A stretch of DNA of 57,092 nucleotides, counting the filler, from Jimgerdemannia flammicorona (lineage: Eukaryota), in assembly GCA_003990765.1 (NCBI GenBank). It is 2 parts of 2 records of this genome, joined end to end, with 100 filler letters (N's around TTAATTAATTAA, not from the genome) between each part and the next. Parts side by side here need not be neighbours in the genome. Positions count along the whole stretch, not along the records: positions 28,622 to 57,092 come from RBNJ01000557.1; 1 more part is not named here. One strand, written 5' to 3'. Below, in pieces: positions 6,247 through 57,092 of this stretch; position 1 is the first letter of the stretch, and each line of letters opens with the position of its first letter. The position numbers and the translations under genes were made by a program. The notes below the pieces were generated by a model, which worked only from the letters and a program-made list of their open reading frames with translations, was not told the origin of the DNA and searched no databases.

Positions 6247-7571
6247 GAGGAGCCTATGCCACCACCAAGATTACTGAACTTGAGCACAAGAAAGATAAGG
6301 ACCAGAACAAGCACACATATACCATTGGAGAAAACTTTCCCCTGGAGGAACAACTTCTCAAGATCCTGTATCAGAATGAAGGAGTACTTGCTACAGACTT
6401 TAGGGATATCTACAATCAAGAACCCAAGTACTATCATGAAGTTGACACTGGTGATATCAAGCCTATCTACCAGAAAGCCAGACCCATACCACCTGCCTAC
6501 AGAGAATAGCTGCAAGCCAAACTCAAGGAAATAGAAGAAGCCAGAATCATCAAGTAAGCTATCAGCCCCTGAGCCTCACCCATTGTCCTTGCCCCAAAGA
6601 AAGAAAGCAAGCCTGGAGAGTTTGCACCAAGACTCTATATTGACTACAGGAAACTCAATGCCATCACCAAGAAGGATAGGCAGCTCTTGCTGAATATTCA
6701 AGAAATCCTTACCACTCTTGGAAGCAAAGCCAAATACTACACCACCTTGGATCTGTTCTCAGGCTTCCATCAGATCAGTCTCACTCAAGATGCCAGTGAG
6801 AAATCAGCTTTCATTATACCTGATGCCACCTATATCTATCTGCGAATACCATTTAGAATGTGCAATACCCCAGCAAGTTTCCAAAAAATGATGAACAGAG
6901 TCTTCAGCAATGAGATTGGAAAATGGCTCTTTGTCTATGTTGATGATGTGATCATCTTCAGCAATACTGCACAGAAACATATCAATTACATACAGCTAGC
7001 CCTCAAGAGGCTCAAGAAGCATGGCCTCTATATCAAGCCTAAGAAATGTAAGTTTACAGCTCAAGAAATCACCTACCTAGGACACCTCATCAACCAGACT
7101 GAAATCCACATAGACCCCATGAAGATCGAGGCTGTTGCAGCCTATCTGAGACCCAGAACAACTACAGAAGTCCATGCCTTCCTTGGACTGTCCAGCTACT
7201 ACAGAAGATTTATCAAAGGATACTCTAACATTGCAGCATCTATCTACGAGCTACTGAAGAAGGAGACCAAATTCGAATGGACCAAGGAGTACCAAGAAAC
7301 CTTCAATGAACTCAAGACCAGGTTGACCCAAGTACCCATCCTCAGAAGACCAGACTGGAACCTAGAATTCATCCTGCAGACAGATGTAAGTGCTATAGGA
7401 CTTAGAGCAGTTCTAGCTCAGAAGAAAGATGGACATGAATATGTCATCTCTTATGCAAGCCAAGGTACCCATGGAGCAGAACAGAACTACAAGTCATGCA
7501 AGCTTGAATGCTTAGCAGTAGTTTGGGTAGTAAATAAGTTCTACTACTACCTAGCTGGAAAATACTTCACC

Positions 7572-28521: not shown

Positions 28522-28621
28522 NNNNNNNNNNNNNNNNNNNNNNNNNNNNNNNNNNNNNNNNNNNNTTAATTAATTAANNNNNNNNNNNNNNNNNNNNNNN
28601 NNNNNNNNNNNNNNNNNNNNN
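28522..28621. other. Assembly gap with artificial TTAATTAATTAA spacer
   Basis: N-runs flanking a 12-nt six-frame-stop palindrome. Confidence 0.9.
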
Positions 28622-28727
28622 TTTTTATTGTGAGGAATTGACAATATAGCTCAGATAAGCTGCTGATATAATATGAGGACAATTCACTATATATAGAACC
28701 CATTAGAATAAAGTGTTGTGGTACTTG

Positions 28728-28762
<35 letters not shown>

Positions 28763-28767
<5 letters not shown>

Positions 28768-28862
28768 TCAGGTGTCAAGTTTGTGGCTTAGGTATCAGTC
28801 TTTGTGGCTTAGGTGTCAGTCTTTGTGGCTTAGGTGCCAGTCTTTGTGGCTTAGGTGTCAGC
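28763..28862. repeat. 21-bp tandem repeat (TTTGTGGCTTAGGTGTCAGTC), 4 copies plus a partial
   Basis: Directly visible. Confidence 0.9.
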
Positions 28863-29123
28863 AAGTTGGATTTATTGTCAATAGTTAACGTGACTTGCCC
28901 TTAACAATGCCTGCTAGAGCTAGAGCACGCCCGTTGTGCTATGCATCCTTTAACTGTATTCACGAACGGTAAAAATGGGTTTACAAAACTGTGAAACAGG
29001 CCAGCGAAAAAAGCACCCGAAGTTTTATATATATATCCCCACGCGAAGATAAATCACGTGCCCATGATGTCACTTCACAAGTTTCGACATTTTGGGTCGT
29101 CACCAGAAACCATCCTCAAGACC

Positions 29124-41388: not shown

Positions 41389-42576
41389 CCCTTTCTCCGC
41401 TACTTTACTGGTCACAATGATTTGGTAGGTAACCTTCTGAGTCCACTTTCCACAACTAATACCCCCTCTACCTTGGGTTGATTTGCTGTACCTGTTGCAG
41501 GACAGTGAGAGGGAGGCAATAGTGATGAGTTGCCCCTTTATTGGTGTTAGATCAGTATTTTCTCTACTTTTTTGTAGTTTTTGGTATCTTCAGCTATGTC
41601 TGAAGTATACTCATTTTAGTGTGGTATCTTCTTCCTTTTGTCATTGTCAATAAGGTGTCATCTCAGTATATTATGGATTATATAGAGAGTTGGCTGATCT
41701 TGGATATCAAGTATCTAATGTAGGTTATCTACAGGTCCTCAGTATCTGTAGTGGGGTCTTCTAGCTTTAGTGAACTTCCTGGTAAGTATGATTCTGATAT
41801 AGATGACTGTTTTTTGAGTGATGTCAGAATGGGAGAGGAGATGGTTATCACAGATAAGAGGAAGGGCAATAATGATAGATCAGTAGGGTATCAGGCTGGA
41901 GATAGTCATTAGGACTGGAGTGAGTATTACTTTGATAGGGTCTTTTGATTGGTGCAAAGTGGTTAGATAATAGATATCACTTTTAGCTACTTTTGGCAAT
42001 TTATAGGATTGGGCCCTGGTCATTGGGGGTGGTTGAGAGACCTGAGGCTATCTATATTAGACATCTTAGCTACACTCAACTGGAACTAAGAGCTGATATA
42101 GTAACATAATTGAGACCTACAGACTTGAGTAGTGAGGTATTAGAGATCTTCTCTTATCTTATATATAAGTCCTCTACTCATCTTGCTTGAGAGAACTAGG
42201 CCCTACCCACCATTCTATATCCTGAGAAGGGTTTTTTCTTTGTCTGTCATTTCTACTTAGGGTGGCAGAGGCTATTCTATTTGGCTCAGGCATAACCTTA
42301 TATATATATTAGAGTTTTGAGTATATACTTTCAGTCATTGGTATATGACTAAGTTCTCTCTGGTAGTAGAGAGAATATAATATATAGAATGAGGTATAGG
42401 TCATTATAGGTCCTGCTATGTCTAGTATGGTCAAGTTGCTAGATAATAGCTAGTCTAAGTTTAATGGAGAGACAGTACTTAGTGGGTGGTAGGAGAGACT
42501 TTTGGCCTTTATAGTCTAGATTCTCTTCTAATAAAAATCCACAGGACTCTGAGTCTGTAAAATAAAATAAAAAAAA
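41389..42576 (+). mobile_element. SINE-like retroposon copy 2 (full length)
   Basis: Colinear with 18992-20174; A-rich tail; decayed 15-bp TSD TAGGTATAGCCAGTA (41374-41388) / TAGATATAGCTAGTA (42577-42591). Confidence 0.9.
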
Positions 42577-44401
42577 TAGATATAGCTAGTATATAGAAAA
42601 AGTAAAAATAAATAGAATATATCTAGATATTTATAAAATTATAAATATATAAATATCTACAATATATATAGGCTTATAAATATTTATAATATAGACTTAC
42701 ATATAGATATCTATAGTATAGCTTATAAATATCTTTTGAGAGAAGAAGAAAAATATATATTAATAATATATTATAATTATTATAATTAAATATAAACCTA
42801 TATCTAAAGTATAATAAATTAATTTATCTGATAAAAGAAATTAGATTATATAATATAAATAAATATTTTAGAATTCTAATATTTAACTAACTTATCTTAT
42901 TTAATAAAAGTTATAATTCTAAATCTACAATAACTAAAACAATATTTTATATAATTTCTTCTTACTACTAGAAAGTAATTATAATAATTTTTTAAAATAT
43001 CTTTAGAGACTAAATTTTAAGTATTAATAAATAAAAAAAAAATAACCTAAATATATAAAACTCAGTTTTAAAAATTATACTTTATATATATAAATATATA
43101 TATATAAAGACTCTAAAAGACTATTTGTCTTTCTGAGTTTAGTGTCTGAATATATAGATAATATAGAATTTGTAAATCTCTACTCTATTGCAAGAAGCAA
43201 CTCTGAGCAGATAAATTCCTTTATTCTCCCCTGTACCCTCTTTTCTACTCCTTCAGGTCCATATCAATCGGCACTCGAGCTATCGATGACATACACACAT
43301 AGCACGGGGTTTGTGGACGAATGGAGAGGTGGACGTCTACTGTTTTAAAATGCTCGTGTGGCAACCATCACAGGTGTCCTACCAAAGAGGCGTTATTGAT
43401 TTTCCAAAATACATGGATCCCATAACCGTGCCACACAGGGCCAAAACAGCTATTTATAAGTTCTCGTCTTCCATATACATTTCAGCTGGGAGCACGAACT
43501 CTTCCTTTTTTTTCTTCTTTGCTTCCATTGTCCAACGAACAGGAGAATGGGTTGTGGTTTTGATATGATTCAACTGGAAATACCTCGCGCAGCTCTTCGA
43601 GTTTACCCATCCCGTTGACACAGCGCACGTGAGCATCGTTTTTATTTTTGCTTTTGCTTTGGATGTAAAGGAGTACGCGTCGTTGATTATTATTTTTGAT
43701 CTCCTCCTCCCGCACGCCAACATCCTTCCCATCCCACTGGCCGCGGACTGATCAGTGTATATCATGTGGAACCGTCCCTTTTATCTTCATATCTATGTCT
43801 GTGTTGTCTAGTGCTTTACGCCCCTACTCCTAGCTGACCTCCCCATCCTTCCCCAGAATCGACGGAAGTCTCTCCCACTACTTGCATCTACGCCAGCGTT
43901 GTACGTTCTCCCATCCCTTCAGCCTTCCCCTTTATGCCTTATTCCATCAGATTCTATTGCCATTCGGGCACGAGCGACACTACTAGCGTGCACAGCAAAC
44001 ATACCAGAGATGCACAACCATTCCAATAGAGAATATGCCAACCCAAGCGAACGGAGGGCGGGATCTTCTTTCTTTACCACAACTTATATTATATGCAAAG
44101 TACAGTTTTGATGCCTATTTCGTGGGTAGGGTGGGGGATCAGAGGGAGTTCGGAAGAAGTGGGTTGGGGGAAAATACGCCAAACAATAACAGACATCAGG
44201 TCTATATTCGTTTGTTGGAGGCATGGCGCAGGCGTATGATTGATATACATTCTCTTTATTGGAGGAATCCAGTCTCCGAAAAATATTTTGATGGCCGGAT
44301 ACTAACCATCACCGTCCCCCGGTCCATAACGACCCACTGTCCGTCTGTTCGCTGTTCATAGAGGAGGGGGAGGGGAAACCGGACGCCGTGGGGTGGGTGG
44401 T

Positions 44402-45051
44402 CTAGTGGTGCTCCACGTTCTTGTGGTGCTCTGTGTTTCGAGGATGGAGAGAGTTCGCATCAAAATCAGCATGCTGTTCGTTTCTATAAGTATAAAAGTA
44501 CTACGGGTGCTTTCCGTGAATTGTATGTATCCGTGTAGGTCGTAATCAGATTAGGATATTTCTACTACGAATTCCGTGATGGTTTCAGCAGTACCCCTTT
44601 GGGGTATCTGTTGTCCCTATCTGTGTCTCATCATATCGACCTGCCGCTCAGCGTTGCAATAGCAGCACCAAAGCTGGCACACCCACCACCACCACCACCA
44701 CCACCACCACCACCACCACCATGAACCAGCATGCTCCTCCCCCGTTCTTCCTCCCTACTTACTGAGGTGGAAGTGGTAATCCAGCGCGTACGAGATGGCA
44801 AAGATACCGATAATAGCGTGGACGAGTGGGGCGGGGGAGGCGTTCTCGCCGTCGAAGTAGCGGGCCTTGTAGCGGGCGAAGAGGCCATGCGCTTGGCGGG
44901 GGGAGGCATCGCCCTTGGGCAGACGCTTGTAGAAGTCGACCATGCCCTGCATGCGGCGGGTATCCTTGGGAGAGCTGATACCCTTGGTCGTCGCAAGGTT
45001 CGGCGGAATAAGCTGCTTCGTCGAGTAGGCGCGGCGGATGACGGTGTTCAT
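44402..45051 (-). CDS. ATP17: Mitochondrial ATP synthase subunit f; exons 45051-44763 and 44430-44402
   Basis: LIPPNLA...MVDFYKRLPKG...RYKARYFDGENASPAPLVH...YALDYHFHL|KHHKNVEHH*; GTAAG...ACAG intron. Confidence 0.93.
44541..44639 (-). ncRNA. Intronic box C/D snoRNA, U74/Z18-like
   Basis: C box ATGATGA (44634-44628); guide AGATAGGGACA before D' CAGA; hairpin; C' TGCTGA; D CTGA (44549-44546); terminal stem GGTCG/CGACC; guide complements LSU rRNA UGUCCCUAUCU. Confidence 0.8.
44682..44721. repeat. (CAC)n microsatellite in the ATP17 intron
   Basis: Directly visible. Confidence 0.95.
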
Positions 45052-45360
45052 GGTGGTGTGGAAGGATTCGAGGTTTTGAGGGAGCGGATGGGTTATGGTT
45101 TGTTTGTACCCCTGCCTCAAAATTCAGGAGTGACGTCACTGGTTGGGATGTCCCCAAAAATTATACACGAGAAGGAATCCATCTCAATACACGCAATATC
45201 CAAAAAAAAAAAAATTGAGAACGCAACACAATCGACCTTTTCTTTTAAAAAATTGGTTTCATAAAATAAAAGGCCGCCCAATTGACCGTTCCCGCCCAAA
45301 CCGCACCCAATACATCACAACCTCGACCCTGCTCATTATCTACTTTCCAGGCCGACCGGC

Positions 45361-46618
45361 TCACTTCTTAGCAGCACCGACCCTTGCTCCGTTGGGTCCT
45401 ACGTACTCGTAAAACCCTTTCCCGGTCTTGCGCCCGAAATGGCCCTTGGCCACGAGATCGGTCAGTTGCTTCACGGGCTTGACGAAGGCGGGCTCCACCT
45501 TGCCCTCTCTGGCCCAGCCTTCAACGATGGACTTAAGGGTGTCGAGGCCGACGAACTGTGTGTGGATGGATTAATGTGAGGTGGAGTTGATGAGAATGTG
45601 TTGGGTGTTATATAGGATCTCACATTTACAGGTAAACAGACTTTACTCACATCAGAAAGTTCAATGGGACCCATTGGGAACCCGGCACCGAGCTTCATGG
45701 CTACGTCGATGTCCTCGAGACTAGCCTCGCCGCGTTCAACTATACGGAGGGATTCCATCATGTAAGGGACCAGGAGGCGGTTCACAATGAAGCTATGCGA
45801 AATAATAAGAATGGGGCGATTTAGGACGTCGCGTCATGTATAACCTCCCTTCAACAATCAAATTTGACATCCTTCTATACCACGCCCTCAAAAACAGATA
45901 ATAAGCAGCATCCATCAATCGCTTACCCAGGAGTATCTTTGCATGCGACGGAAGTCTTCCCAATCCGATTAGTTACGTCAACCAAGCTCTGGTACGTCTC
46001 CGTGTCGACTTTATCAGTCTTCACAATCTCTACCAGCTTCATCGCCGGGACAGGGTTAAAAAAGTGCAGCCCGGCGAACCTGGCCTGCCTGTCTTCGCTT
46101 GTGACCTTGGCGATCTCGGCGATGGGCAGCGATGATGTGTTTGACGTGAAGATGGTGTGTTTTGGCGCCGCGGCGTCGAGCGACATAAACAGTTTCTGCT
46201 TGGTGTCTATGTTTTCCACAATAGCCTCCACCACCAGGTCGGCTCCGGCGACGACGGCCTCGGCCTTCGTGCCTGTCTCGATGAAGCTCCAGGTTCGGTC
46301 CACGTACTCGCTCTGCTTCCCCTCGTCGTCGGGAAACTTCTTCTTGGCCACGCGCCGCACCGATGCAGCGATGATGTCCCGGCCCTTCTGAAGCTGGTCC
46401 GGTGAGAGGTCCACCATCGTCACGTTCAGCTGCGCCTGCGCGGCCACCTGCGCAATGCCGGCGCCCATTAAGCCGGCACCCACGACGATCACGCTCTGGA
46501 TTTCCCTTTGTGCGGAAGGCGTCGTGGAGAAGTGGGAGGCGAGGAGTGGACGGAGGAGAGTGGTTGGGCGCGCGAGGCGGGCGGCAGCGAAGCCCGGTTT
46601 GAGGAGGATAGAAGACAT
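45361..46618 (-). CDS. HADH: Mitochondrial 3-hydroxyacyl-CoA dehydrogenase; exons 46618-45927, 45792-45651, 45555-45361
   Basis: Arg-rich presequence; Rossmann [72 protein letters not shown]. Confidence 0.95.
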
Positions 46619-46884
46619 TTTTTGAGGGGGATGTGGGTGGATGGACGAGGTGTCGAAGTAAGGGGTTCAATACCCTTGCAATACAATACGAATGATGAGC
46701 GTGAAGTGCATGGCTCGTCACATGGCATTGCGATATGCGTGATGTCATCAGAAAGGAATTCTATGTTGGGACCCGTGTACTAAATAAGATATTTACAAAA
46801 AAAAAAAAAAAAAAAAAAAAAATGGGAGAGGGGTTCCTAAAACTTATAAGTATTATATGTACAAATTAAAAAATAAAAAATAAT

Positions 46885-48876
46885 TCACAATCGTTTGTCC
46901 TCCGGATTCGTAATCCAGTACTCTAACGGCACCTCATGCTGCACCAAAAACTCCTCCAGATACTTTGCATACGTCCGCCATGGCCTCCAATCCACCTGAA
47001 ACGCCACCGATTCCTTCACGACCGCCAAATGCTTAGATAAGTGCCATTTTGCCGCGCGCATAACCACGCCATCATCCCCACTCGCGAGATCTTGGTACTC
47101 CACGATCTTGGACAAAATCTCGGTCGTCATAATGAACGTGCCCAAAAACACGTCGTGCGTCTCCCCGCGCTCGCACAGATCGATGAACAACCCGTTGAGC
47201 CTCCACGCAGCCTCGACACACACTTGCAGTGAGCGCAGCTGGAACGTGTACCCGTTCTCTGTGGCAGCGGCGATGGCCTCTGCGGACTTTGGGATGAATT
47301 GCTTGTGCAAATCGATCGACAGGTGGTGGTAGCTGGCCTGATTTGACACGGCCAGCGGACGAATTCGGGGTCCGCACGCGTCCAAACGGTCGGCGCGGAA
47401 TTGCTCCGGCATCTCGGCGTACCACGCCTCCAGCTCGCGTTCCAGCCCCGTCACCAGCGTCAGTGGGACCTTGCCCTCCTCGTTCTCGTACAGAGTGGTC
47501 ATGACCTTCCATGCCAGATCGCGACTGCGGCCGTTGTGGACGAAGAAAGCGAGTATGGCGCGCTCGTCCTCGTCCTCTACATCGAGCTCGCGCGGCGCTA
47601 CCGAGGGCGCGAGGTCACGCAGCATTGCCGGGAATCCGACGGCGAACATGTCGAAGTCCCAGTGGTACAGCAGCCAGCCGAGGCGGATGGTACTCTCGCG
47701 TTGCAGGTCGCGCGACTGGCCCAGGACGAGCGGTTGGTCTCCCCCGCAGCCCGAGAACAGGCCCAGCTGTTGCGCGAACCGGACGGCAAGGCTGTAGAAG
47801 GAGTGCGCCTGAGTCGGCTTTGCAGGGTCCGGGTTGTACAGTCGGTACTGCATCAAGAACGCCAGCGCATACACCGTCGACACATGAGGCTCGTCGAACA
47901 CCTCCATCAGCTGCGCGCTCGCTCGGTGGAAGAAGTACTCAGGCACGTGCGTCGCTCGCTCCCGGTCCACGTGCGCACCGTGGAAGATCAGCGCGTGCTC
48001 CGACGTCCACGTCGCCATCGAGAGAGCTACGAGCGAGTTGAGCGGATCCGGGATTGTGCGGTAGTGTGTGGTGAAGCTGCGGCGATGGAGGATTGGGGCT
48101 TTGTTGTTGAAGCATTCGAAGTAGACATCGATGCAGTTGTCGATGACGAAACGCATTGGGGAGGATAATATGGAAATGCTGAGGTTTGGGAGTGATAGGT
48201 AGAGGTCAATAATGGGTGAGATGGAATCTTTGCCGAACTTGCGGAAGAAGAGCTGGTTCCGGGGGAGGGTGACGGCGGTGGATGAAGAGTCCGAGGAAGG
48301 AGTTGTTGCGTGTAGGTTAAATTCAGATGATATTCGCGTCCCCGACAGACTATAAGAGAAGAGATTCTGAATATCCGTGATGTTGCGCAAGTTTGTCTGT
48401 ATGGTAAACCTCCGTGGGGAAATGCGAACGCTCCAATTTACCGGTTTACCTGACGCAATAGTTTGGTTGGTATGTCGATGTTGCACAATGGTTGTCCCAG
48501 TAGAACTGTCAGATCTGCTATTGTTTTGCTTTGAAAGCCTTCGCATTGTTCTGTTCTGCGCCATGACAACTTCCAATACCGATTCGTCGTCGTCGTTGCC
48601 CAACGTCTCCTGCGCCGCGTTCGTCATGGAAGCACGGTTTTTCAAGCTGGCAATCTCCTCCTCCATACAATCCAACTCCACCTCTATATCCTCTGCTGTA
48701 CCCTGAAGCATATGAAAGTATTCGCCGGGGTTCAGATACCGGCAAGTGATCCCATACAAGAGGCATCGTTCGCAGGATGGCAGGGCCATGGAGCATTTGG
48801 CCTTGCCCTGATGGCAGGCGAGGCAGGCTCCGTCCTTCAGCTTCCTGCCTGTTCTCGGTAGTGGATCGGAGCCCAT
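46885..48876 (-). CDS. Zn(II)2Cys6 fungal transcription factor with middle-homology domain (start codon uncertain)
   Basis: CLACHQGKAKCSMALPSCERCLLYGITC; YFECFNNKAPILHRRSF; AVRFAQQLGL; first ATG at 48876, an upstream exon is possible. Confidence 0.92.
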   Translation of the reverse strand: MGSDPLPRTGRKLKDGACLACHQGKAKCSMALPSCERCLLYGITCRYLNPGEYFHMLQGTAEDIEVELDCMEEEIASLKNRASMTNAAQETLGNDDDESVLEVVMAQNRTMRRLSKQNNSRSDSSTGTTIVQHRHTNQTIASGKPVNWSVRISPRRFTIQTNLRNITDIQNLFSYSLSGTRISSEFNLHATTPSSDSSSTAVTLPRNQLFFRKFGKDSISPIIDLYLSLPNLSISILSSPMRFVIDNCIDVYFECFNNKAPILHRRSFTTHYRTIPDPLNSLVALSMATWTSEHALIFHGAHVDRERATHVPEYFFHRASAQLMEVFDEPHVSTVYALAFLMQYRLYNPDPAKPTQAHSFYSLAVRFAQQLGLFSGCGGDQPLVLGQSRDLQRESTIRLGWLLYHWDFDMFAVGFPAMLRDLAPSVAPRELDVEDEDERAILAFFVHNGRSRDLAWKVMTTLYENEEGKVPLTLVTGLERELEAWYAEMPEQFRADRLDACGPRIRPLAVSNQASYHHLSIDLHKQFIPKSAEAIAAATENGYTFQLRSLQVCVEAAWRLNGLFIDLCERGETHDVFLGTFIMTTEILSKIVEYQDLASGDDGVVMRAAKWHLSKHLAVVKESVAFQVDWRPWRTYAKYLEEFLVQHEVPLEYWITNPEDKRL

Positions 48877-49312
48877 CGTGGATCCTGTTCGTTGAGGTTC
48901 GGGTTGTTGAGGTGTTGCTTCGTTCGACAGTCGGTGTCTGTTTACGATCAACAACAGGTCGCACAACCCACGTGCGCCGTGTTCTCATTTAGCTCCACGG
49001 TTAGAAACCATGTGTTGAGTAATAGAACCGTCTCCCGAAACCCTTCTGACCCCATAAATTTTTTATTCCCACATAATTACATATACATCTAATGCATTTA
49101 ATTAAGGCGGTAACAAATTAACAGCTGAGAAATTATAACTGAAAACCAAAATCATAATTTATAAGAATAATGCTGATCTTAGCTATTTGTAATTAACTTA
49201 TTTGATTCTATTTCAACAGAATCAGACTTGAGACAATTAGCTCAATATATATTAATAATAATAAGAAAAGCAAAAAGTTATTTAAGTATTATTAATATAT
49301 TGAGATGATCAA

Positions 49313-49314
<2 letters not shown>

Positions 49315-49343
<29 letters not shown>

Positions 49344-50024
49344 TGGACTTAAAGTTCTGCAGATTTTATTGAAAGAGAATCTAGACTATATAGACCAAAA
49401 CTCTTTCTTACTATCTATCAAGCACTACCCCTCTATTGAACTTAGGCTAGCTATTATCCAGTAGCTTGACTATACCAGGTACAGCAGGGCCTAATGAGAC
49501 TCATATCTCATTCTATATACTATACTCTCTCTATCACAAGAGAGAATCTGATCATATGATAATAACTGAAAGTACATGTCTGATATCTCAACATATATAT
49601 AAGGTTATGCCTGAGCTAAATAGAATAACCCCTATTACTCCAAGTGAAAATGACAGGTAAAGAAAAAACTCTCTTCAAGATACAAAATAGTAGATAGAGC
49701 CTAGTTCTTCTAAGCAAAGTGAGTAGAGAACTTATATATAAGACAAGAGGAGACTCTCAATACCCTACTACTCAAGCCTGTAGGCCTTGATTATGTTGTC
49801 ATATCAGCTCCTAGTTCTAGTTAAGTAGCCAAGATGCTTGACCTAAGTAGCCTTAGGCCCCCCAGCCACCTCTAATAACTGAGACCTAACCCCATAAATT
49901 ATCAAAAGTAGCTAAAAGTGATATTTATCACCTAACTGCCCTGTACCAATCAAAAGGCTCTACCAAAGCATCACTTGCCTTAGTTCTGATGACTGTCCCT
50001 AGTCTGACACCCTACTGGTCTACT
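49315..50024 (-). mobile_element. SINE-like retroposon copy 3 (3' ~60%), interrupted by copy 4
   Basis: Poly(T) 49315-49341, then reverse complement of ~20160-19480. Confidence 0.85.
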
Positions 50025-50097
<73 letters not shown>

Positions 50098-50197
50098 TTT
50101 ATAAACTCAGAGTTCTGCAGATTTTTATTAGAAGAGAACCTAGACTATATAGGTCAAAATCCTCTCCCACCACCTATTAAGTACTATCTCTCCATTA
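50025..50197 (-). mobile_element. SINE-like retroposon copy 4 (3' end with long tail)
   Basis: ~70-nt poly(T) followed by reverse complement of ~20160-20064. Confidence 0.85.
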
Positions 50198-50350
50198 GTA
50201 CTCTGAATGGATGGAGTTGATCTAGATGAGATTCGATTCAGATTCGTCATGTGATGGATTCGAATCAACTTGAATTGATCTCATGATCTGATCCAGATTG
50301 ATCTGGATTGGTCCATCCAGATTGGTCCATCCAGATTGATCCATCTGGAT
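50196..50350. repeat. Putative DNA-transposon terminus with subterminal GATTC/CCAGATT motifs
   Basis: Begins TAGTACTCTG where homology to SINE copy 4 stops; clustered short motifs in both orientations; partner terminus not in window. Confidence 0.5.
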
Positions 50351-50516
50351 TGAAATCTTTGGTGATATCACTCTTTCTTTTGTTCATTTCGCTCTTGTTT
50401 TTTTTTTTCCTGCTGCACTTTGGTGACATCACCCTTTCCTTTTGCTCTCTCTCTTTTTTTGTTCTTTTCTTTGTTCTTTTTCTTTGTTCTTTTTCTTTGT
50501 TTTTTCCTGCTGCATC

Positions 50517-52710
50517 ATGAACAAACAAAACAGCAGCCCTTAATTTGTACATTAGTCCAGTCTACTCATTTTTCACCCTGCAATGATCATCAAAAGAGGG
50601 AGTATTCGAGGTGGAAATGTACTCTCTGCTGACAATATTAGATTCTTTCTCATATGGACAGCACACAAGCTGCTCATCGAGAGCCAAAGAGGCGACAGTG
50701 GTGGCGGTGGCAATGACAATGGCAATGGCGATGGTGGGGATGAGGGAGAATTCCGGCAACAACTCACAGTGGCCCTTCGGACCTCGGAATTCACAGACCT
50801 CACAGCTATGTATGCAGCAGCCTTTTTGGAGCAGCCGATAGTAGATGTAGGTTGCTCACTCAGCTGCCACTTGTTTACTTATGTTTATTTAAACTTCCCC
50901 AGCATGACCCAATTCACCTTGTGCTTTTCTTAGGGTCCACAGCTCTATGGCGAGATCTGCCAACTTTATTCGCAACATCTGGTCAAGATGAAGAAAGGCT
51001 GGCAGACATTATGGGGCATGCCTTTGGTGGCTGAGCTGTTGAGTCAATGCATTGTGTGGCGGAGGTCTCAAAAGGAATAGAAGCAAGCCTTCATGAGCAA
51101 TCTTGTGCAACTTGTACAACTCGTCAGCATGCAACTCGTCGGCATGCAACTCATCGGTATGCAGCTCACTCACTCACTCACTCACACTCTTTTTCTGAAA
51201 TACCCATCTCTGTGTTTTATTTAATTTTATTTTTATATGGTCTCCCCCTAAAAAGCACCCACACCCACATGCAACCCGCCTACATACAACCCACCCATAT
51301 GCAACCTGCCCGCATGCAACCCACCTGCACGCAACCCACCCACATGCAACCTGTCTGCAATCCACCTGCAACCCACCTGCACGCAACCTGCCTGCATGCA
51401 ACCTGCCTGCATGCAACCCACCTGTATGCAACCCATCTGCATGCAACCCGTCCATATACTTATCTCAGTCTCTCAGATCAGGGCTCAGTTCCATTGGAAA
51501 GGAGAGTTCAAAGTTACCTAAGTTCAACCATGTCCAGCATCTGATCAAATAGAGAAATTCAAGGGTAAGATGTTCAGCATGAGTAGGACCAGTATCATCA
51601 TCAAGGCTTGGGGGTCTATATTTGAATCAGAGCCAATTGTACTCGACCAAGGGGCCCATTGGCCAGCAGGAGTAATCAATGACGAAGAGAACCATATATT
51701 TATTAACAAATACAGAAAGGTGGTTGCGATGGTGGTAAGGAACCTTTATGGCAACGAGCTTTACTGCCACATCAATGAGATTTATGAGGATTGTGTCAAA
51801 TATCAGGTGGCAGGAAAGAGGGAGCGAAAAAAGCAAGGAGGGGGGGTTTGGATAGGAATTAGATATACTGCAATACTGGTGAAGGGTGGGTTCCAGAGTT
51901 CCGAAATCCCCCACACTCATCTCTCTTTTTTTTTTTAACCCCTCCCCAGATAAATCACACTCTTCGCCGACATACTCTTTTTGATACAATTCCAGGGATG
52001 CACAAGATTCTGTACCCCTACCAGAACTTTAGAAGTACCATCAAAGAGCAAACTGCGCACAAGCATGATATGGCCTATGCGGTGATGGCAGCTATGATCT
52101 GGGGTTCTTTGAGCAGATTGGTAGAGTGTACAGCAGGCCAGCTTGGTGGTGATCTCAGCACAGCTATATGTACATTCTTGGCATAATTTAGCATGCCATA
52201 TGAGGTGAGGAGCTCTGCTTTTTTGGGGTGCTACAGCCCAGGGGGTTTCTGCCCCCCTGCACACAAAAAGGACTGACCAGTTGTCATCTGTTTCAGCAGA
52301 TTTCCAAGCCAGGACTCCTGGGGCTGGACTAAGGGCAGGCATCCATTAGCATAGCCTGACAGTATGAGGTCTTGGGCCAAGGGTTCACCCAACTGTACAC
52401 TCATGTCACATTAGGATACATTAGGCGCAACCTTTCTCTGCCCATACACACAGACAACAATATCACTCCAGTAATGTTTTACATTCTGGAAAGGAAGGAC
52501 CCAACCTGGGAGGATAGCAGCAGAGTCTGGTATGACTTCATCTATGGTTTCAGGGTCCCATTTGCAGCCAACATGACTATCCTATTCCAACCACATGACC
52601 ACCATGGTACCATCGCCTTCGAGGAGAGCTCAGATACAATAGTTGTCACACTCACAATAGATGATAGGCTCATCAAGGCCTGGGACTGGCAGGTGGAGCA
52701 GTTTTTGTGA
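50517..52710 (+). pseudogene. Spliced gene relic with C-terminal 2OG-Fe(II) dioxygenase-like (TET/JBP-like) domain
   Basis: Phase-compatible GT-AG introns 50847-50933, 51807-51949, 52205-52296 and acceptor at 51476; last exon has LPIHTDNN (52447) and ILFQPHDHHGT (His 52603); few stops, consistent with C>T; 5' end uncertain. Confidence 0.62.
51105..51452. repeat. Intronic TGCAACC-core tandem repeats (~15-bp units)
   Basis: Directly visible, two blocks. Confidence 0.85.
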
Positions 52711-52959
52711 AGGTTAGACAATCTTTCATAAGGGTTAGGCAGCCATTTTGTGTGGGTTAGACAGCCATTTTGTGTGGGTTGAACAGTCTTATGTGGGCTG
52801 AGTGCCTCTTATATAGTACTAGCTTAGCCATTATGTAGGGCCCTACTAGCCCCTCGGCTCTGCTCTGTAGTGCCGCTAGTATGGCACTACAGCATAGGGC
52901 CAGAGTGCCCGTGGGATCTGAACTGGTGACTTCAACTGCTGGAAATGCCCTCCAACCGT

Positions 52960-53460
52960 CAGAAGCACCCTCTGCCCCAGACTCCTTGGCGGCTTGGGGC
53001 TGCTCCTATGCTACTGGCGGAGGGCCACAAATTTTACATGCTCCCTCCATCTGCCCCACCCATCCCGGACACTTGCAGCTTGGGGCTGCCCCTTACTGCT
53101 GGTAGAGGGCCGCAAATTTTGCACACTCCCTCTGCTGACTCTGTGCCCGCCAACCTGCCAACCGACCCCACCCACTGACCTGGGCACTGATAGCTTGGGG
53201 CTGCCCCTCACTGCTGGCAGAGGGCTGCAAATTTTGCATGCTCCCTCCACCTACCCCCCTGACCCAGACACTTGTGGCTTAGGGCTGCCCCTTGCTGCTG
53301 GTAGAGGGCCGCAAATTTTGTGCACTCCCTCTGCTGACCCACTGACCCGCCCACCAACCTGGGCACTAGCAGCTTGGGGCTGCCCCTTGCTGCTGGCTGA
53401 GAGCCACAAATACTGCGTGCTCCCTCCGCTGCCGCCACCAACCCCACCCTACTTGGGCTG
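52960..53460. repeat. Five ~65-bp conserved units (GCTTGGGGCTGCCCCTTGCTGCTGGCAGAGGGCCGCAAATTTTGCA...) with C-rich linkers
   Basis: Directly visible between the dioxygenase-like and hAT genes. Confidence 0.85.
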
Positions 53461-53589
53461 TAAACTCTGGGCCAAGTCCTTAGGTTTTTTTTTTCCTTTT
53501 TTATTATTTTGAAAGGTATTAATTTGAAAGGTATTAAATATTCCACAAGGCCAACTAACTTATCCACGAACCTGCCAAATTTTAGTAGC

Positions 53590-55818
53590 CCAAGCCCCAC
53601 CAAGACTTCAGATACATACATACACACCTGAATTGTCTCAGTATTCAGCGCACACCTCTTTGGGGCAATGAGGTCCACCCCATCTGAGAACACCCGCTCG
53701 ACAGGAGTGCTGGAGGCAGGAATCACCAGGTAGTTCTGAGCTATATCATACAGACTGGAGAAGTCCGTTTGACACAGCTGCACACCCTGGTGGGTAGAGC
53801 GGTGGTTAGATTGGTGGGTTAAATTGGCCCAACACCCATCTGACAATGCCCACCTGACAACCCACCTTCCACCAGTTGAGCACCTCCACACCCTCTAGTA
53901 GAATCATGCAGTCACTGGTGAGATAAATGGTGAGTTCGTCTATTGATGGCAGCTCTTCCACTGATGGCTCCCTCTTCCTCTTTCTGTTGAAGTAAATATG
54001 GGACAGGAGGGAACTCTCGGCATATTCATCCGAACTTTGGCCAGAACCTTGTGGCAGTGTATAGTTTTTCCAGTATACTTCGATTATGGCCTGCTTGGTT
54101 CTCTCAATGAAGTGCTGCTCCCAACTCTGATCTTTATAGTATTGTAGCTTTAAGCATGGGTCCAGTACTGTTTAAAGAAAAGGAGAGTGAGTTTTTGCAG
54201 GGTTTCCTCTATTTTGGAAGGGGCAATGGCCACATGCCAACATCGACATACCTGTACTGATTGAGTATACAGCAGTATCTGTTTGGGAGTAGTATTTCCT
54301 GAGCTTACTTAGAGTAACCTCCACAGCATCTCTCTGATCCGGGCTTAACCGTAAATCACCACAATCCTCCAGCCTGTCCTCGAGCTTGTCCTCTAGCCAG
54401 TCAATCAGAAGGTTGTATACTGATATCGCAGAGCTTATTGTTAGGGTCGTTTGTTTGACTATATCCTTTGTACAATCATCAAAACACTGGCAGTTATATA
54501 TGGTGAGGTGTTGCATTGTGTGGAGGTAGACAAAATGAGTATGGAGTCAGAGCAACCACCACTTACTTCCAAAACTCTGACAACATTCCTAAGTATGTCC
54601 CACTTGCTTTCACCTAGAGCCTTGGCCCATATTTCCTTATCAGCAGCCATTATTGAATCTATTGGCTTTTTTTTTTTTTTAATTTTTTAAAATAAATCTT
54701 CCATCATCTGAAATAGTTACTTCAGCTGACCAAAGAAAAAAAGGATGTATACTACAGCAAACTCCAGCGCATGCTGGATCATTGCAAATGTTGAGTTCCA
54801 ATGTATACAGACATCCAATATAAGCTCTTTTAGAGCTAAACTGATTGCTCTACACTGCATAGTGAATTTGTCTCGTCATTGTGGGGACAATCAGACCGAC
54901 ACAATCAGTTTGTGCAGCTTGGAAATTATACTCAGGGCCCCTCCTCTCTTGGATGTTTTGTCTATATGCATAAGATAGTTCTGAACAGTGAGGTTCAGTA
55001 TGTGAGTCTGGCATTGCACACAGCAGCTTTCTACACTGAAGGCCATGTTTTCCTATTTGAGGCTGGCTGCTAAAGCTTGGAAAAATGTTGAGTTGTTTGT
55101 GGCATTGTCCATTATAATGGCCAAAATCTATACTTGAAATATTTGGTTGGCGAATTATGCGAAAATAAATAACCAATAAAATCTATTCTGTTTAAGGACC
55201 TCCCTCAAAATGCTGACCTGATGGCAAGCCCCCCTTTTTTTACCTTGGTTGTGATCCCAAGCTCCCGGATATAACTAATAAAAGCATCTGCGATGTTGTC
55301 TCCAGAATGAGGGCTAGCAAGTTTGATGAAGTCAAGGGTGAGAGATTTAAGCTACCAATCGAGGTCAATCCAATGACCAGTAATACCCAGAAATGAAATT
55401 GTATTGGGGAATATCCATATGTTGATCATAAACGAAATTTTACCTGCCAAATTCTGCTTATTGAATGTAAGGTTAAATTGGTGAGCTCTTTTATATAATT
55501 CAGCTTGCAAAGGTCATGGTGCTGCCCTTATTTTATCTGAAGTGTCTGGTGAAGATTATCGTGCTCCTTCCTATAGGCCTCCAGGACATCTTTATGAATA
55601 GTATTGGCACTTGGCAAATATAAATCATGCTTGAGGAGACCAAAGATGCTATGCAATTGATCACTCTCGATGGTTGTGAATGGCTGGTCTGTGTACACAA
55701 TCCAGCAAATGAGCTGATTTCAAAATTCTGCTAAAGAGTATGGCTAAATATTTTTGATTAAATAGCATTGTTGGTATAGAAATGATTGGGCAATCAGATA
55801 AACATACCCACCACAGCA
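53590..55818 (-). mobile_element. Intron-containing hAT transposase pseudogene; 5' part displaced by a LINE insertion
   Basis: Dimerisation domain IAQNYLVIPASSTPVERVFSDG; VLDPCLK; LDVCIHWNST; HILNLTVQ; NIWISPNTISFLGITGHWID; PHSGDNIA; DQPFTTIES. Confidence 0.9.
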
Positions 55819-56941
55819 GCACCTTTCACCGGTAACATTCGGGTGACACAAGATTTGGACAACACTTTCTGTGAAGTTTTTGGTGAAAAGCTACTATCAA
55901 CATGGCGAGCAACGAGCAAACTGGTGGGCAGGTCGGCCAGGGGGGCAGCCGGGCCTTCGGCTGGCAGCAGGTTGGGAGGAAACGAGGAGATGGTTTGGGG
56001 ATGCCAGGGCCGTCTGTGGTGGGCGGTGGCACTGGAGGTGGAGGGAGAGGTGGACTGAGGCAGAGAGGTGGGGGGAGGGCGACCTTTGCCGACAAGGTCA
56101 GGATAGGGAAGATGGCCGCAGGGCTGGATGGTTGGTTGGGACTGGGGAAGGCAATGCCGGGTTCAGAAGGAGGGCAGGGAGGATCCCCCATGGGAGCCTC
56201 AGTCGGCATGGGGGGAGGGGGAGTAGGGGTTGGAGATATGACTGCTGATGGGGCTGTGACAGGAAATCTGGAAAAAAATCCAGATGTGATGGCGGTTGGC
56301 GGATCTGGTCAGAAGGAGGGCACGAGGCCCAGGGACCTGGCTGATGGAGTGACAGGCATGGTGTCGGCACCGTTACTCAAAAAGTCGAGGTCAGAATTCG
56401 CTGTCACATTGTGTTTCCGAGGCTTGGCAGTGACTGCAAGGATGATCCTGGGACTGGTGGTGCAGGAGGTGAAGGGGGCAGCTACGGTCAAGTTCATGAA
56501 GGGGAAGGAAGGGATTGAGGTTGGGTTTGAAGAAGAGGGGTCGATGCTGGAGGCTATGGAGAAAGGAGTAGTAGTGGGTGGAGTGGTAGTTCCTATAGCA
56601 AGGTGCATGCGCTGGGACCCGAGAGTGGTGCAGTTGACGGTGCTGGATCTTCCTATGGTGTCACGGGAGAGGGCTAGGGAGTTGATTGTGGAGGTGGTAA
56701 AGGAGTATGGGGATGTCATCGATATCGGGTTCAAAGTCTGGGAGGGTATGGAACTTAGGACTGGAGACGTTGATGTAAGAGTATGCTTGTTTGGTCGGGA
56801 GAACACGGGGAAGGCGAGGGACTGGCCGGCGACGCTGAAGTGAGGACAGGCTGAGTACAGGGTCTCTCGGGTGAAAGGGACGCTGGAGGAAGAGGAGGAT
56901 TTGCTGGAGGCTCTTGAGGATCTGACGGGAGCTGTTGAGAG
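55819..56941 (+). mobile_element. 5' part of a second LINE (5' UTR and ORF1 from 55902), inserted in the hAT element
   Basis: ORF1 homologous to the relic at 22752-23760 (NLEKNPDV, LLKKS, VTLCF.GL.V, VKF.KG..G.EVGFEE, RDWP). Confidence 0.88.
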
Positions 56942-57092
56942 GCTCTCCTGTACAATTCACATTACACAAACCTTCAAGCAACAGTTCTCGACACAACTAG
57001 GAGTAAAGGTACTAGCAATATGTCTTCAAGCAAGAGTTCCGACGGGCGTACTGGGTCGGGGGGAGCTGGGGCTTTCGGCTGGCAGCAAGTGG
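56942..57092 (+). mobile_element. 5' end of a third LINE nested in the second
   Basis: TACAATTCACATTACACA head and AAAGGTACTA..ATG context shared with 22671-22755; ORF1 ATG at ~57020; runs off the window. Confidence 0.75.

Follow-up and report, generated by a model that had tools for sequence, protein, structure and literature searches.

A decayed multi-copy gene for a probable divergent TET/JBP-like dioxygenase beside a hAT transposase in Jimgerdemannia flammicorona

Described relatives and overview of the locus

Transposon-borne TET genes, including genes in hAT elements, have been described, and Kojima (2025; PMC12730594) reports 20 TET+ hAT7 families in Puccinia, so that the statement in the initial annotation that no hAT association was known is out of date. 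The Puccinia elements encode PU-type TETs with GWRK, SHFDSD and YTRIGFS motifs, have CAACRGTGGG termini and a 7-bp TSD, and occur in a host whose repeats show methylation-linked C-to-T decay (PMC12730594). PE-type TET-like proteins, found in truffles and Agaricus, are carried by transposons of the Helitron, IS3EU, Plavaka, EnSpm and Zisupton lineages, and Kojima's HHpred match of this type to CMD1 had an E value of 1.4 (PMC12730594). CMD1 itself is a vitamin C-using TET homologue of Chlamydomonas (PMC7854593). A further point of comparison is the phage Tet_JBP family (PF12851), represented by gp2 of Mycobacterium phage Cooper, which matches Pfam Tet_JBP at an E value of 4e-6.

We analyzed a window (the whole stretch of DNA under study) of 57,092 nt from J. 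flammicorona (GCA_003990765.1), consisting of two joined parts, with positions 28,622 to 57,092 derived from RBNJ01000557.1 (Table 1). The window was compared with a set of soil metagenome contigs (X1), with two metagenome loci that carry the TET-like gene (L001 and L002), and with the TET-like family proteins P0001, P0002, P0003, P0005, P0006, P0012 and P0020, of which P0005 is intact (374 aa). As a whole, the data are best explained if positions 51570 to 52710 are, as we consider probable, an inactivated copy of a fungal gene that exists in multiple copies, has at least three exons and encodes a very divergent TET/JBP-branch Fe(II) dioxygenase; direct support comes from homology and exon structure, from the conserved metal ligands, and from the multi-copy state and CpG loss. 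Like the Puccinia TET+ hAT7 elements, the window has a hAT transposase beside a TET/JBP-type gene in a fungal repeat. This type of pairing has already been described in fungi; the enzyme lineage found here apparently has not.

Table 1. Features in and around the TET-like pseudogene (window positions)
Feature	Positions	Strand	Evidence
Retroposon, about 700 bp, poly(A)-tailed, non-autonomous, full-length (the "SINE" of the initial annotation)	49315..50022	-	Self-BLAST
Same retroposon, 5'-truncated copy: 75-nt poly(T) followed by 115 bp of 3' body	50026..50197	-	
Non-coding repeated segment containing short repeats; perhaps a DNA transposon's subterminal region	50198..50580	.	TRF
Two short ORFs, first exons of the initial annotation; no homology support	50583..51080	+	
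Minisatellite, 15-bp, CATGCAACCCACCTG-like units	51117..51449	.	
Exon A, TET/JBP-like pseudogene	51570..51879	+	Spliced alignment to P0005; intron match to L001
Exon B, TET/JBP-like pseudogene; donor GAG|GTGAGG	51996..52204	+	tblastn with P0005 residues 167-209; alignment
Exon C, TET/JBP-like pseudogene; stop at 52708-52710	52297..52710	+	74% identity to P0001; family alignment; hhalign
Five tandem units, about 85-115 bp each, separating the ends of the TET-like and hAT genes	52968..53445	.	Self-BLAST
hAT transposase gene, decayed; many short ORFs in three frames	53560..55830	-	Pfam Dimer_Tnp_hAT
LINE-like retroelement, 5' (ORF1-like) part, abutting the hAT 5' side and continuing beyond the window end	55887..57092	+	

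Exon structure, decay and copy number

The plus-strand ORFs reported initially are present, and three of the four that had been joined into one gene, at 51570, 51998 and 52372, do belong together, as judged from homology to P0005 and from the three-exon genes at L001 and L002, which support exons A to C with conserved intron positions and phases. The remaining stretch (50583-51080; CpG observed/expected ratio [o/e], 0.42) could not be retained in the gene, as it had no tblastn match to P0001, P0002, P0003 or P0005 (E ≤ 10) and no Pfam hit. When the spliced translation was aligned with residues 91 to 337 of P0005, the score was 242, against a mean of 32 and a maximum of 54 for shuffles. At the end of exon A, an intron of L001 (phase 1, G|GA) sits at the equivalent place; a fit to it requires a phase-1 end of exon A at 51879, where the following bases are TG, not GT, so the one donor that had been left open is unusable in the L001 phase.

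Three in-frame stops (52184, 52330 and 52357) lie inside the exons, and thus the exons exceed the ORFs and this copy is a pseudogene. In exon B, a TAA at 52184-52186 stands where P0005 has Gln, and C is found at 52184 in all nine X1 contigs that span it, making the codon CAA; exon C contains a TAA at 52330 and a TGA at 52357, and the latter is TGG (Trp) in all seven X1 contigs over 52359, each of which reads G. Two of the window stops are therefore sense codons in every X1 contig that covers them. Reading through two stops, tblastn aligned 52309-52707 of exon C with P0001 at 74% identity. The WEDSSRV motif has SSR (about 52512-52520) in place of SGG, and its relatives have SGG, GGS or GGG, which bears out the earlier suggestion that these codons could be restored by undoing G>A changes. 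Overall, X1 contigs differ from the window by 653 transitions versus 66 transversions. Stops are also found in L002 and are lacking in L001, that is, they occur in two of the three genomic copies (window, L001 and L002).

The TET-like gene, the hAT gene and their flanks are all multi-copy in the soil metagenome, with 2163 X1 contigs of 80 to 99+% likeness covering 49580-57092, while the host genes at 43000-49100 have a depth of 0 to 5. Loss of CpG is typical of methylated repeats, and the transposable element (TE)-type decay attributed to both genes is evident in CpG o/e values of 0.21 for the TET-like gene and 0.26 for the hAT gene, compared to 1.04-1.13 for host genes. An origin as an ordinary host gene family, silenced after its duplication and not a transposon passenger, would agree with the failure to find element ends and with the finding that L001 and L002 are 99% identical across 2.7 kb with no visible transposase. 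This explanation is nonetheless highly improbable, since X1 contains hundreds of short, diverged contigs that cover the gene and barely covers the neighbouring host genes, the CpG loss resembles that of neighbouring TEs and not that of host genes, two of three genomic copies carry stops (the window and L002, not L001), and the nearest described relatives are transposon-borne (PMC12730594).

TET/JBP affinity and conserved active-site residues

When 1.84 billion representatives were searched with the last exon in phmmer, five matches were obtained, four of them real: P0001 (74% identity), P0002 (47%), P0003 (37%) and P0005 (30%). The H-T-D motif (52447-52455) and downstream His of the initial annotation are present, the distal His (52603-52605) being the third His of HDHHGT, 52 residues past the first, and they are conserved in relatives: both His residues are invariant in all eight aligned members and the Asp is found in seven, with HxN in the remaining one, P0003, whose cluster mates P0006 and P0012 carry Asp. 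An Arg about 7 residues N-terminal to HxD is kept in 7/8 members (His in P0001), an Arg 13 residues past the Asp (R298) is invariant, and a GG turn and HG[TS] motif are also kept. In total, 16 columns plus the metal ligands are invariant among members that are 25 to 48% identical to P0005. The family has Asp or Asn at Asp+2; the base-contacting Asp/Asn of TET2, NgTET1 and CMD1 is at Asp+3 (PMC7854593).

The family profile alignment (A2) matched nine phage Tet_JBP proteins in hhalign with a probability of 87% and an E value of 4e-6 over 68 columns, pairing H283/D285 with H171/D173, R298 with R187, and H335-G with H221-G. On rerun, this comparison scored 42.3, while 30 column shuffles reached at most 21.5, the reversed alignment scored 16.5, and a control alignment of PiuC-type 2OG oxygenases scored 14.3 (E = 0.38; no match); with P0020 as the first sequence, the probability dropped to 20% (E = 0.0011). 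In the ESM Atlas, 18 of the 30 clusters nearest to P0005 carried PF20515 or PF12851 (the other 12 had no family), and all 30 named neighbours of P0020 were Tet-like (8 with PF20515 and 22 with PF12851). Together, the hhalign match, the lack of a match to the PiuC-type control and the protein-language-model neighbours support the original designation as a TET/JBP-like Fe(II) dioxygenase. The other profile and structure checks gave no such match: Pfam assigned no family, Tet_JBP included, to any exon or relative, whether P0001, P0002, P0003 and P0005 (E ≤ 10) or P0020 and the window pieces (E ≤ 1); PDB sequence searches gave no match for P0005 and profile A2 and chance matches alone for the window exon and P0002; and two AlphaFold models were unusable (mean pLDDT, 36.5 and 38.0), with nothing better than an E value of 1 in Foldseek for the second. 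The sequence comparisons suggest that the gene family is a very divergent, apparently undescribed lineage of TET/JBP-like DNA-base oxygenases, which presumably has a double-stranded beta-helix (DSBH) fold and would act on 5-methylcytosine or a related modified base.

The phage match is to the core, beginning shortly N-terminal to HxD and ending shortly past the distal His; the His-His spacing is 50 residues in phage and 52 in the fungal family, and both have an invariant Arg 13 to 14 residues past the Asp, GG, and HG followed by T. In contrast, the phage proteins have Asn at Asp+3 and, 14 to 17 residues beyond the distal His, an invariant Y-R-x-S, neither of which is found in the fungal family; their N-terminal halves differ from those of the fungal proteins, they hit Pfam, and their biology is DNA hypermodification rather than that of a fungal transposon passenger.

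When read by eye from the printed sequences in the PMC12730594 supplement, rather than from a computed alignment, the family resembles an HxD-bearing sister of the PE-type proteins. Conserved blocks of the Agaricus bisporus Plavaka and Tuber Helitron/IS3EU proteins (PMC12730594) appear in the same order in the window, with ...GGHFYISEYGIRVRAAANTLIAWQPKDWHGT... corresponding to ...SRVWYDFIYGFRVPFAANMTILFQPHDHHGT... of the window, and a further three blocks are shared; ELVLVVIRN corresponds to KVVAMVVRN in the window, LSAGSRS to VSAGYTV, RMDGHG to RLDGGH, and GGHFY..YGIRV..AANT.I.W.P.DWHGT to GG.WY..YGFRV..AANMTILFQPHDHHGT. By eye, both also have an Arg shortly N-terminal to the first His and a TT.R Arg about 15 residues past it, and both groups are very distant from canonical TETs, multi-copy and repeat-associated. 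They differ in that the PE-type hallmark is HxE, compared to HxD in 7/8 and HxN in one member of the window family, and in that Agaricus PE sequences retain an Arg past the distal His (QRGLAFV) where the window family has T, N, H or I. Six family motifs (HTDNN, DLHGT, YGFGV, YGFRV, HVDFD and THVD) were absent from the supplement text.

The 2-oxoglutarate-binding Arg expected after the distal His, already noted as not evident in the window copy, is missing in 8/8 members, and therefore the family could be inactive; in TET2, NgTET1 and phage Tet_JBP this Arg binds the 2-oxoglutarate C5 carboxylate. The family might accordingly be related to TET/JBP but catalytically dead or independent of 2OG: lacking the C5-carboxylate Arg, it would make no use of 2-oxoglutarate and be either non-enzymatic or dependent on another co-substrate, as CMD1 is on vitamin C. 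At the position equivalent by eye to this Arg (that of PE-type QRGLAFV and of R236, invariant in phage), the family has T, T, I/T, H, N or N, and there is no conserved basic residue between His+3 and His+19 among family members. According to PMC7854593, 2OG binding in TET2 and NgTET1 involves two strictly conserved Arg residues, and CMD1 cannot use 2OG because none of its basic residues is placed to bind the C5 carboxylate. The likeness to CMD1 is one of analogy only; CMD1 still has this Arg in its sequence (R410), but it points away from the site and Trp358 occupies the space, whereas in the family the residue is replaced (PMC7854593). We consider a dead or non-2OG protein unlikely, as the invariance of the metal ligands and 16 columns at 25 to 48% identity argues for purifying selection on the active site, the invariant R298 could assume carboxylate binding, 2OG-binding residues are subfamily-specific across 2OG oxygenases (PMC7854593), and the Arg position was placed by eye because the hhalign alignment ends at His+5, five residues beyond the distal His.

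The repeat island and the hAT neighbour

The poly(A) retroposon copy ending at 50197 was confirmed. Its full-length neighbour has a plus-strand poly(T) at 49315-49341 and a CpG o/e of 0.0 and is 75 to 77% identical to 42576-41876 and 20174-19485, and 50083-50197 is 87% identical to 42576-42462. The proposed truncation stands, but the retroposon is about 700 bp long and no tRNA, 7SL, 5S or other Rfam head was found in it. Truncation at the 5' end is a normal outcome of retroposition, so no inserted element is required to explain the end at 50197. Soil metagenome contigs run from about 50185 into 49439-like sequence, indicating full-length copies elsewhere. In the adjoining block, described earlier as terminus-like, the 14-bp repeats are real (3.4 units at 50306-50353, with a 13-bp T-rich unit at 50450-50505; TRF) but have no inverted partner within the window, where the motif CCATCCAGATTG is likewise unique to this segment and without an inverted counterpart; many X1 contigs cover 50198-50580.

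The decayed hAT transposase facing the TET-like gene was verified by its hATC dimerisation domain at about 53610-53768 (E = 1.9e-6; 28 bits versus a cut-off of 21.4). This stretch weakly resembles the C terminus of the Hermes transposase (E = 0.9), and the other 14 minus-strand ORF pieces scanned in the region matched no transposase family. In the tandem units between the two genes (families D5-D7), X1 joints skip 92 to 401 bp or go back 148 to 167 bp. Within the LINE-like element, 56217-56533 is 67% identical (self-BLAST) to 23053-23361, the 5' part of an element with RVT_1 at 26601-26978 (E = 2e-12).

The claim that a hAT transposon carries the TET-like gene was not demonstrated: no TIRs were found enclosing both genes, the hAT gene alone or the TET-like gene alone, and neither TSDs nor a second linked copy turned up. 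That this hAT carries the gene is therefore unproven, and we regard it as somewhat less likely than not. The two genes may instead be separate elements, the true carrier's transposase lying outside the window and the hAT being a mere repeat-nest neighbour, an arrangement that we regard as a real possibility, if short of an even chance. It is consistent with the lack of a TIR pair and of an inverted partner for the 14-bp block, and with the island being a patchwork of retroposon, LINE-like element and tandem repeats. L001 and L002 have only the TET-like exon in common with the window, and neither has a hAT in its 0.75- to 1.7-kb flanks. Kojima's list of PE-type TETs covers five transposon lineages and does not include hAT, and the TET+ hAT7 elements, whose terminus motif is missing from the window region, carry PU-type TETs that retain the Arg and, in three named families, lie upstream of the transposase and face the same way, unlike the convergent genes of the window (PMC12730594). 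However, no other transposase is seen between 50198 and 53560, the intergenic segment is itself multi-copy with a variable unit number in X1, the LINE-like insertion abutting the hAT 5' end could have moved the right terminus outside the window, and TET genes have repeatedly switched transposon superfamilies (PMC12730594, section 3.4).

In the window, the TET-like gene thus lies tail-to-tail with a dead hAT transposase within a repeat island stripped of CpGs. Intact copies may encode a transposon passenger whose substrate would be 5-methylcytosine, or a related modified base, in its own element, and oxidation of this base would let the element escape methylation-based silencing.

A decayed three-exon gene and its relatives

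A phmmer search with the last open reading frame (ORF) of the candidate gene (52360-52710) against 1.84 billion representative proteins returned five matches. Four are real relatives, namely, P0001 (136 aa, 74%), P0002 (47%), P0003 (37%; a cluster of 28 members), and P0005 (30%), which has 374 aa and is apparently full length. The fifth, P0004, a 1423-aa repeat protein with seven stretches matched to residues 61-101 only, was treated as a repeat-motif artefact and dropped. A word-indexed search with P0005 gave P0020 (259 aa) as its sole match, and a search of this kind with the last exon against longer proteins gave none. We found no new member among 8000 scored candidates in a profile search with the family alignment (A2) and no relative among 53 pattern matches in a scan of viral contigs, while a metagenome scan yielded only two contigs, the soil-metagenome loci L001 and L002, which encode the family protein in pieces.

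When these relatives were compared with the window by tblastn, homology reached upstream of the last ORF to 52309, across two in-frame stops, and residues 167-209 of P0005 matched 51995-52123. Two introns of L001 agree with those of the window gene in position and phase: a phase-1 intron splits the Gly codon before G-M-H, and a phase-0 intron precedes the L-P-x-L-D-G-G block. The tblastn matches and the L001 introns thus back three exons (A, B, and C in the table) of the gene that the initial annotation had joined from short ORFs. The ORFs at its upstream end (50583-51080) match no relative by tblastn at E ≤ 10, and we therefore place them outside the gene; N-termini vary within the family. 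The spliced window translation, with X at stops, scored 242 against residues 91-337 of P0005, compared to a mean of 32 and a maximum of 54 for 200 shuffles; exon A ended at 51881 in this scored translation and ends at 51879 by direct reading.

The window copy of the TET-like gene is dead. Its in-frame stops are TAA at 52184 (Gln in P0005), TAA at 52330, and TGA at 52357 (Glu and Trp, respectively, in P0001); it also has SSR in place of the SGG or GGG of its relatives, and the donor after exon A begins with TG in the required phase. The two soil contigs that carry the gene (L001, 1-3666, and L002, 1-2870) are AT-rich (34% GC) and show 99.0% identity over 2717 bp, with 26 differences that comprise 23 substitutions, 15 of them G>A or C>T, and three 1-bp gaps; identity in their flanks is likewise 99%. 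L002 has two in-frame stops. In both contigs the gene has one more exon upstream (at about 575-648 in L001), and an ORF pair downstream in L001 (2320-2945) has no known domain.

Features of the window, with CpG o/e for some of them
Feature	Position	Strand	Detail	CpG o/e
Ty3/Gypsy-type polyprotein	4434-7616	+	aspartyl protease, dUTPase domain (E 1e-24), RT, RNase H	
Retroposon copy	19485-20174			
LINE-like retroelement	22879-29000	+	RVT_1 at 26601-26978	0.02
699-aa open frame	31129-33228	+	GC-rich stretch (54-62%); sub-threshold collagen-repeat match (26.1 bits vs cut-off 27.2)	
Retroposon copy	41876-42576			
3-Hydroxyacyl-CoA dehydrogenase gene	45923-46666	-		
Zn2Cys6/Fungal_trans transcription factor gene	46885-48984	-		
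Retroposon copy	49315-50022			
Retroposon copy	50026-50197		5'-truncated at 50197	
Non-coding segment with 14-bp repeats	repeats 50306-50353			
Two unsupported ORFs	50583-51080			
15-bp minisatellite	between ORFs 50583-51080 and TET-like gene			
TET-like gene	51570-52710	+	decayed	0.21
Exon A	51570-51879	+	read against relatives	
Exon B	51996-52204	+	donor GAG/GTGAGG	
Exon C	52297-52710	+	acceptor tttcag/CAG	
Hairpin, 19 nt	52856-52901		150 bp past stop codon of TET-like gene	
Five tandem units	between TET-like gene and hAT		about 85-115 bp each	
hAT transposase gene	53560-55830	-	decayed	0.26
LINE-like retroelement, 5' part	55887-57092	+	ORF1-like 5' region found again at 55887-56843	0.02
Tandem repeats				0.25
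LTR polymerase				0.09
Three host-gene regions				1.04-1.13

Probable TET/JBP affinity and the replaced arginine

Sequence comparison makes it quite probable that the family is TET/JBP-like. Its alignment of eight sequences (A2) has 16 invariant columns, which include the first His (H283 in P0005), the distal H335-G336, and an Arg (R298). The conservation of the Fe(II) triad HxD...H in relatives, on which the initial annotation had proposed to test its reading, was found, with both His invariant in 8/8 members and the Asp in 7/8; the exception is P0003 with Asn, but P0006 and P0012 from its cluster carry Asp. The two His stand 52 residues apart both in P0005 and in the window, compared to 50 in nine phage Tet_JBP proteins, whose alignment (A5) was seeded with Mycobacterium phage Cooper gp2, a match to Pfam Tet_JBP at E 4e-6. 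An hhalign comparison of A2 with A5 gave a probability of 87% and E 4e-6 over 68 columns, pairing HxD with HxD, R298 with the phage-invariant R187, GG with GG, and HG with HG. When this comparison was rerun it scored 42.3, compared to a maximum of 21.5 for 30 column-shuffled versions of A5 and 16.5 for the reversed alignment. Placing P0020 first in the family alignment (A4) paired the same columns more weakly (score 31.8, E 0.0011, probability 20%). For a specificity control, we used an alignment of six cyanophage PiuC-type 2OG-Fe(II) oxygenases (A6), which scored 14.3 (E 0.38) against A2 and 22.0 (E 0.028) against A5. The ESM Atlas neighbors, which are leads and not tests, were PF20515 in 6, PF12851 Tet_JBP in 12, and no family in 12 of the 30 clusters nearest P0005, and for P0020, with named clusters only, all 30 were PF20515 (8; "Tet-like 2OG-Fe(II) oxygenase") or PF12851 (22).

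Pfam returned no family for the five window ORFs proposed to make up the gene (E ≤ 1), for P0001, P0002, P0003, and P0005 (E ≤ 10), or for the L001 exons, and only two unrelated matches far under their cut-offs for P0020 (E ≤ 1), so that no 2OG or Tet family appeared in any Pfam scan, at gathering score or below it. AlphaFold2 models of the putative double-stranded beta-helix, from alignments of 8 and 11 sequences, had mean pLDDT values of 36.5 and 38.0, respectively, and a Foldseek search of PDB with the second model gave a best E of 1.0 and no match at E ≤ 0.001. The TET/JBP-like dioxygenase of the initial annotation is thus backed by the profile match and by the conserved HxD/H, and not by Pfam or the AlphaFold2 models. 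Sequence searches of PDB gave no true match, two of them returning only chance matches: one of these was to coatomer beta' (E 0.024), through the C-terminal peptide DDRLIKAWDW (52669-52701), which mimics a WD40 repeat signature, and the other was to uS17 (E 0.25).

In TET2 and NgTET1, two strictly conserved Arg residues (R1261 and R1896, and R224 and R289, respectively) hold both carboxylates of the co-substrate, and the one for the C5 carboxylate (TET2 R1896, NgTET1 R289) sits 10-15 residues past the distal His (PMC7854593). The initial annotation had cautioned that this Arg was not evident in the window gene, and we found that its absence is real and family-wide, with no conserved Arg or Lys from His+3 to His+19 after the distal His across 8/8 members. 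At the position assigned by eye, family members have T, T, I/T, H, N, or N; the post-His Arg is invariant in the nine phage Tet_JBP proteins (R236, in Y-R-x-S). An Arg 7 residues ahead of the first His, present in 7/8 members, is possibly the counterpart of NgTET1 R224. Most interesting among the open points is that the whole family has lost the C5-carboxylate Arg. CMD1 is unable to use 2-oxoglutarate because it has no basic residue positioned for the C5 carboxylate (PMC7854593), and in this one studied precedent the loss goes along with a change of both co-substrate and DNA mark. In the fuller and unlikely proposal given below, intact copies of our family might use a co-substrate other than 2-oxoglutarate, as CMD1 uses vitamin C, or might put another kind of mark on transposon DNA.

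TET/JBP genes have been known in fungal DNA transposons since reference 21 of Kojima (PMC12730594), and the transposon-borne TETs of fungi fall into three types, PU, AG, and PE, in eleven transposon lineages (Kojima 2025, PMC12730594). The hallmark of the PE type is HxE (PMC12730594, section 3.4), whereas our family has HTD or HVD in 7/8 members and HVN in 1. By eye, four PE sequences in the supplement of that paper (two Agaricus Plavaka, one Tuber IS3EU or Helitron, and one Tuber borchii Helitron) have the main blocks of the family in the same order and wording. The clearest shared block is GGHFYISEYGIRVRAAANTLIAWQPKDWHGT in PE and (GG>SR)VWYDFIYGFRVPFAANMTILFQPHDHHGT in the window, and others, again by eye and with PE given first, are ELVLVVIRN and KVVAMVVRN, LSAGSRS and VSAGYTV, and RMDGHG and RLDGGH. 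The Agaricus PE sequences (QRGLAFV) and the PU sequences (YTRIGFS, FTRLGMS) have an Arg past the distal His, in contrast to our family. Six peptide motifs of the family are absent from the text of the PMC12730594 supplement, PF20515 / 2OG-FeII_Oxy_6 is named in no paper found, and "TET JBP" is absent from the matches listed for Mucoromycota, Glomeromycotina, Rhizophagus, and 5mC. TET-carrying fungal DNA transposons are thus already known; on our reading of these sequences, the window gene would be a decayed copy from an undescribed, HxD-bearing, transposon-associated lineage near the PE type. Members of this lineage come from two or more fungal genomes of widely different composition, at about 47% GC in the window and 34% in the soil contigs.

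The repeat island and the neighboring hAT

The host genes in the window are fungal, and the TET-like gene lies in a repeat island that spans from about 49315 to the window end. Within this island, the gene faces, tail to tail, a transposase gene called as hAT by a match to Dimer_Tnp_hAT (PF05699, E 1.9e-6, 28 bits vs a cut-off of 21.4), a stretch that also weakly matches the C terminus of Hermes. Decay has split the transposase frame into many short ORFs; the 14 other minus-strand pieces that we scanned matched no transposase family.

The initial annotation had proposed that a hAT transposon carries both genes, and had suggested looking for shared terminal inverted repeats around them. None was found in the window: a repeat search gave no inverted pair of at least 14 nt, and a mismatch-tolerant scan gave no inverted termini for the gene plus hAT, for hAT alone, or for the gene alone, the best 12-mer-seeded inverted pairs having 5-7 mismatches in 16-24 nt. 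The sequence CCATCCAGATTG in the 14-bp repeats has no inverted partner, the hAT7-type terminus CAACRGTGGG has no occurrence in the region, and no second copy lies in the window. The only sequence common to the window and to L001 and L002 is the TET-like exon, and neither hAT nor any other recognised domain was seen in these contigs in the 0.75-0.9 kb before the gene and the 0.8-1.7 kb after it. The LINE-like insertion, which begins at about 55887, may have displaced the right end of hAT beyond the window. At the other side of the gene, the retroposon copy that ends at 50197 lacks its 5' part, on the side away from the poly(A), as is usual after incomplete reverse transcription, and so the cut is no evidence for an inserted terminus, although an insertion may have occurred there. 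Thus, the proposed carriage is not borne out, and hAT may or may not carry the TET-like gene, adjacency being the sole tie between them. The hairpin past the stop codon of the TET-like gene (GGCTCTGCTCTGTAGTGCC / GGCACTACAGCATAGGGCC) includes CTGTAGTG; this word also recurs often in the subterminal sequences printed for hAT7, and it is not clustered in the window.

The initial annotation knew of no association of TET/JBP genes with hAT, but 20 TET+ hAT7 families with 7-bp TSDs have been published from six Puccinia species (PMC12730594). Their TETs are of the PU type and quite unlike the window protein, and in three of these families the TET lies upstream in the same orientation, whereas the two genes in the window are convergent. 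The fuller proposal, an unnamed fourth lineage of transposon-associated TET/JBP-like oxygenases that would be an HxD sister of the PE type, with the C5-carboxylate Arg replaced in every known member and perhaps captured here by a hAT, is one that we hold to be unlikely as a whole.

We also found the island in X1, a soil-metagenome sequencing run that contained 11% of the sampled words of 50196-55818; two other runs, X2 and X3, contained next to none of this stretch. When X1 was mapped on 43000-57092 at ≥80% likeness, 2163 contigs were placed, 222 at ≥99%, 524 at 95-99%, 841 at 90-95%, and 576 below 90%. In 470-bp bins, these contigs leave no gap over 49580-57092, with summed word depths, which are not copy numbers, of 62-336, and the depth over the host-gene part (43000-49100) is 0-5. 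They do show that each part of the island exists in numerous diverged copies in a related organism. The differences comprise 653 transitions and 66 transversions. Position 52184 is C in 9/9 X1 contigs (CAA, Gln) and position 52359 is G in 7/7 (TGG, Trp), so that these two stops of the window copy are private decay. At 151-363 bp, the X1 contigs are too short to bridge the TET-like gene and hAT.

Other repeats of the window were also recorded. The non-autonomous, poly(A)-tailed retroposon of about 700 bp has three near-full copies at 75-77% identity and one truncated copy, two of these standing head to tail at 49315-50197; its head matches no tRNA and no Rfam family at its cut-off, and "SINE" is therefore a loose label for it. 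The coding strand of the LINE-like retroelement is strongly G-rich (GC skew +0.35 to +0.53), and the element is nearly without CpG. Its 5' part in the island is 67% identical, at 56217-56533, to 23053-23361, which belongs to the element carrying RVT_1, and a second similar start (MSSSKSS...GAFGWQQV) from 57020 suggests tandem or nested LINE-like 5' ends.

CpG decay and the meaning of the lineage

Across the window, CpG depletion is limited to repeats (o/e 0.0-0.56), and the TET-like gene and hAT also have an excess of TpG plus CpA, with (CpA+TpG)/(ApC+GpT) at 1.55-1.63. RIP was rejected as the cause of decay, since TpA/ApT is 0.70-0.76 in the TET-like gene and hAT and the loss is CpG-specific. 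Such a pattern arises where CpG methylation is restricted to repeats and deamination follows, and it suggests that in Jimgerdemannia flammicorona repeats undergo methylation and deamination specifically at CpG. The observation that the gene shares the decay of transposable elements therefore held, its CpG o/e and that of hAT standing against those of the host-gene regions (table), and the genome treats the TET-like gene as a repeat.

The clearest example of mobile DNA resisting epigenetic silencing is the transposon that brings its own 5mC oxidase, and this locus adds a lineage outside Pfam and outside the printed sequences of PMC12730594. If capture by hAT is true here, it would be the first PE-like TET in the hAT superfamily. 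The window copy, being dead, is of value as a guide to the family. Should intact copies prove active, they would provide a compact enzyme of about 370 residues in which to test the drift of TET chemistry, and a direct test of whether such a passenger shields its carrier from CpG decay.
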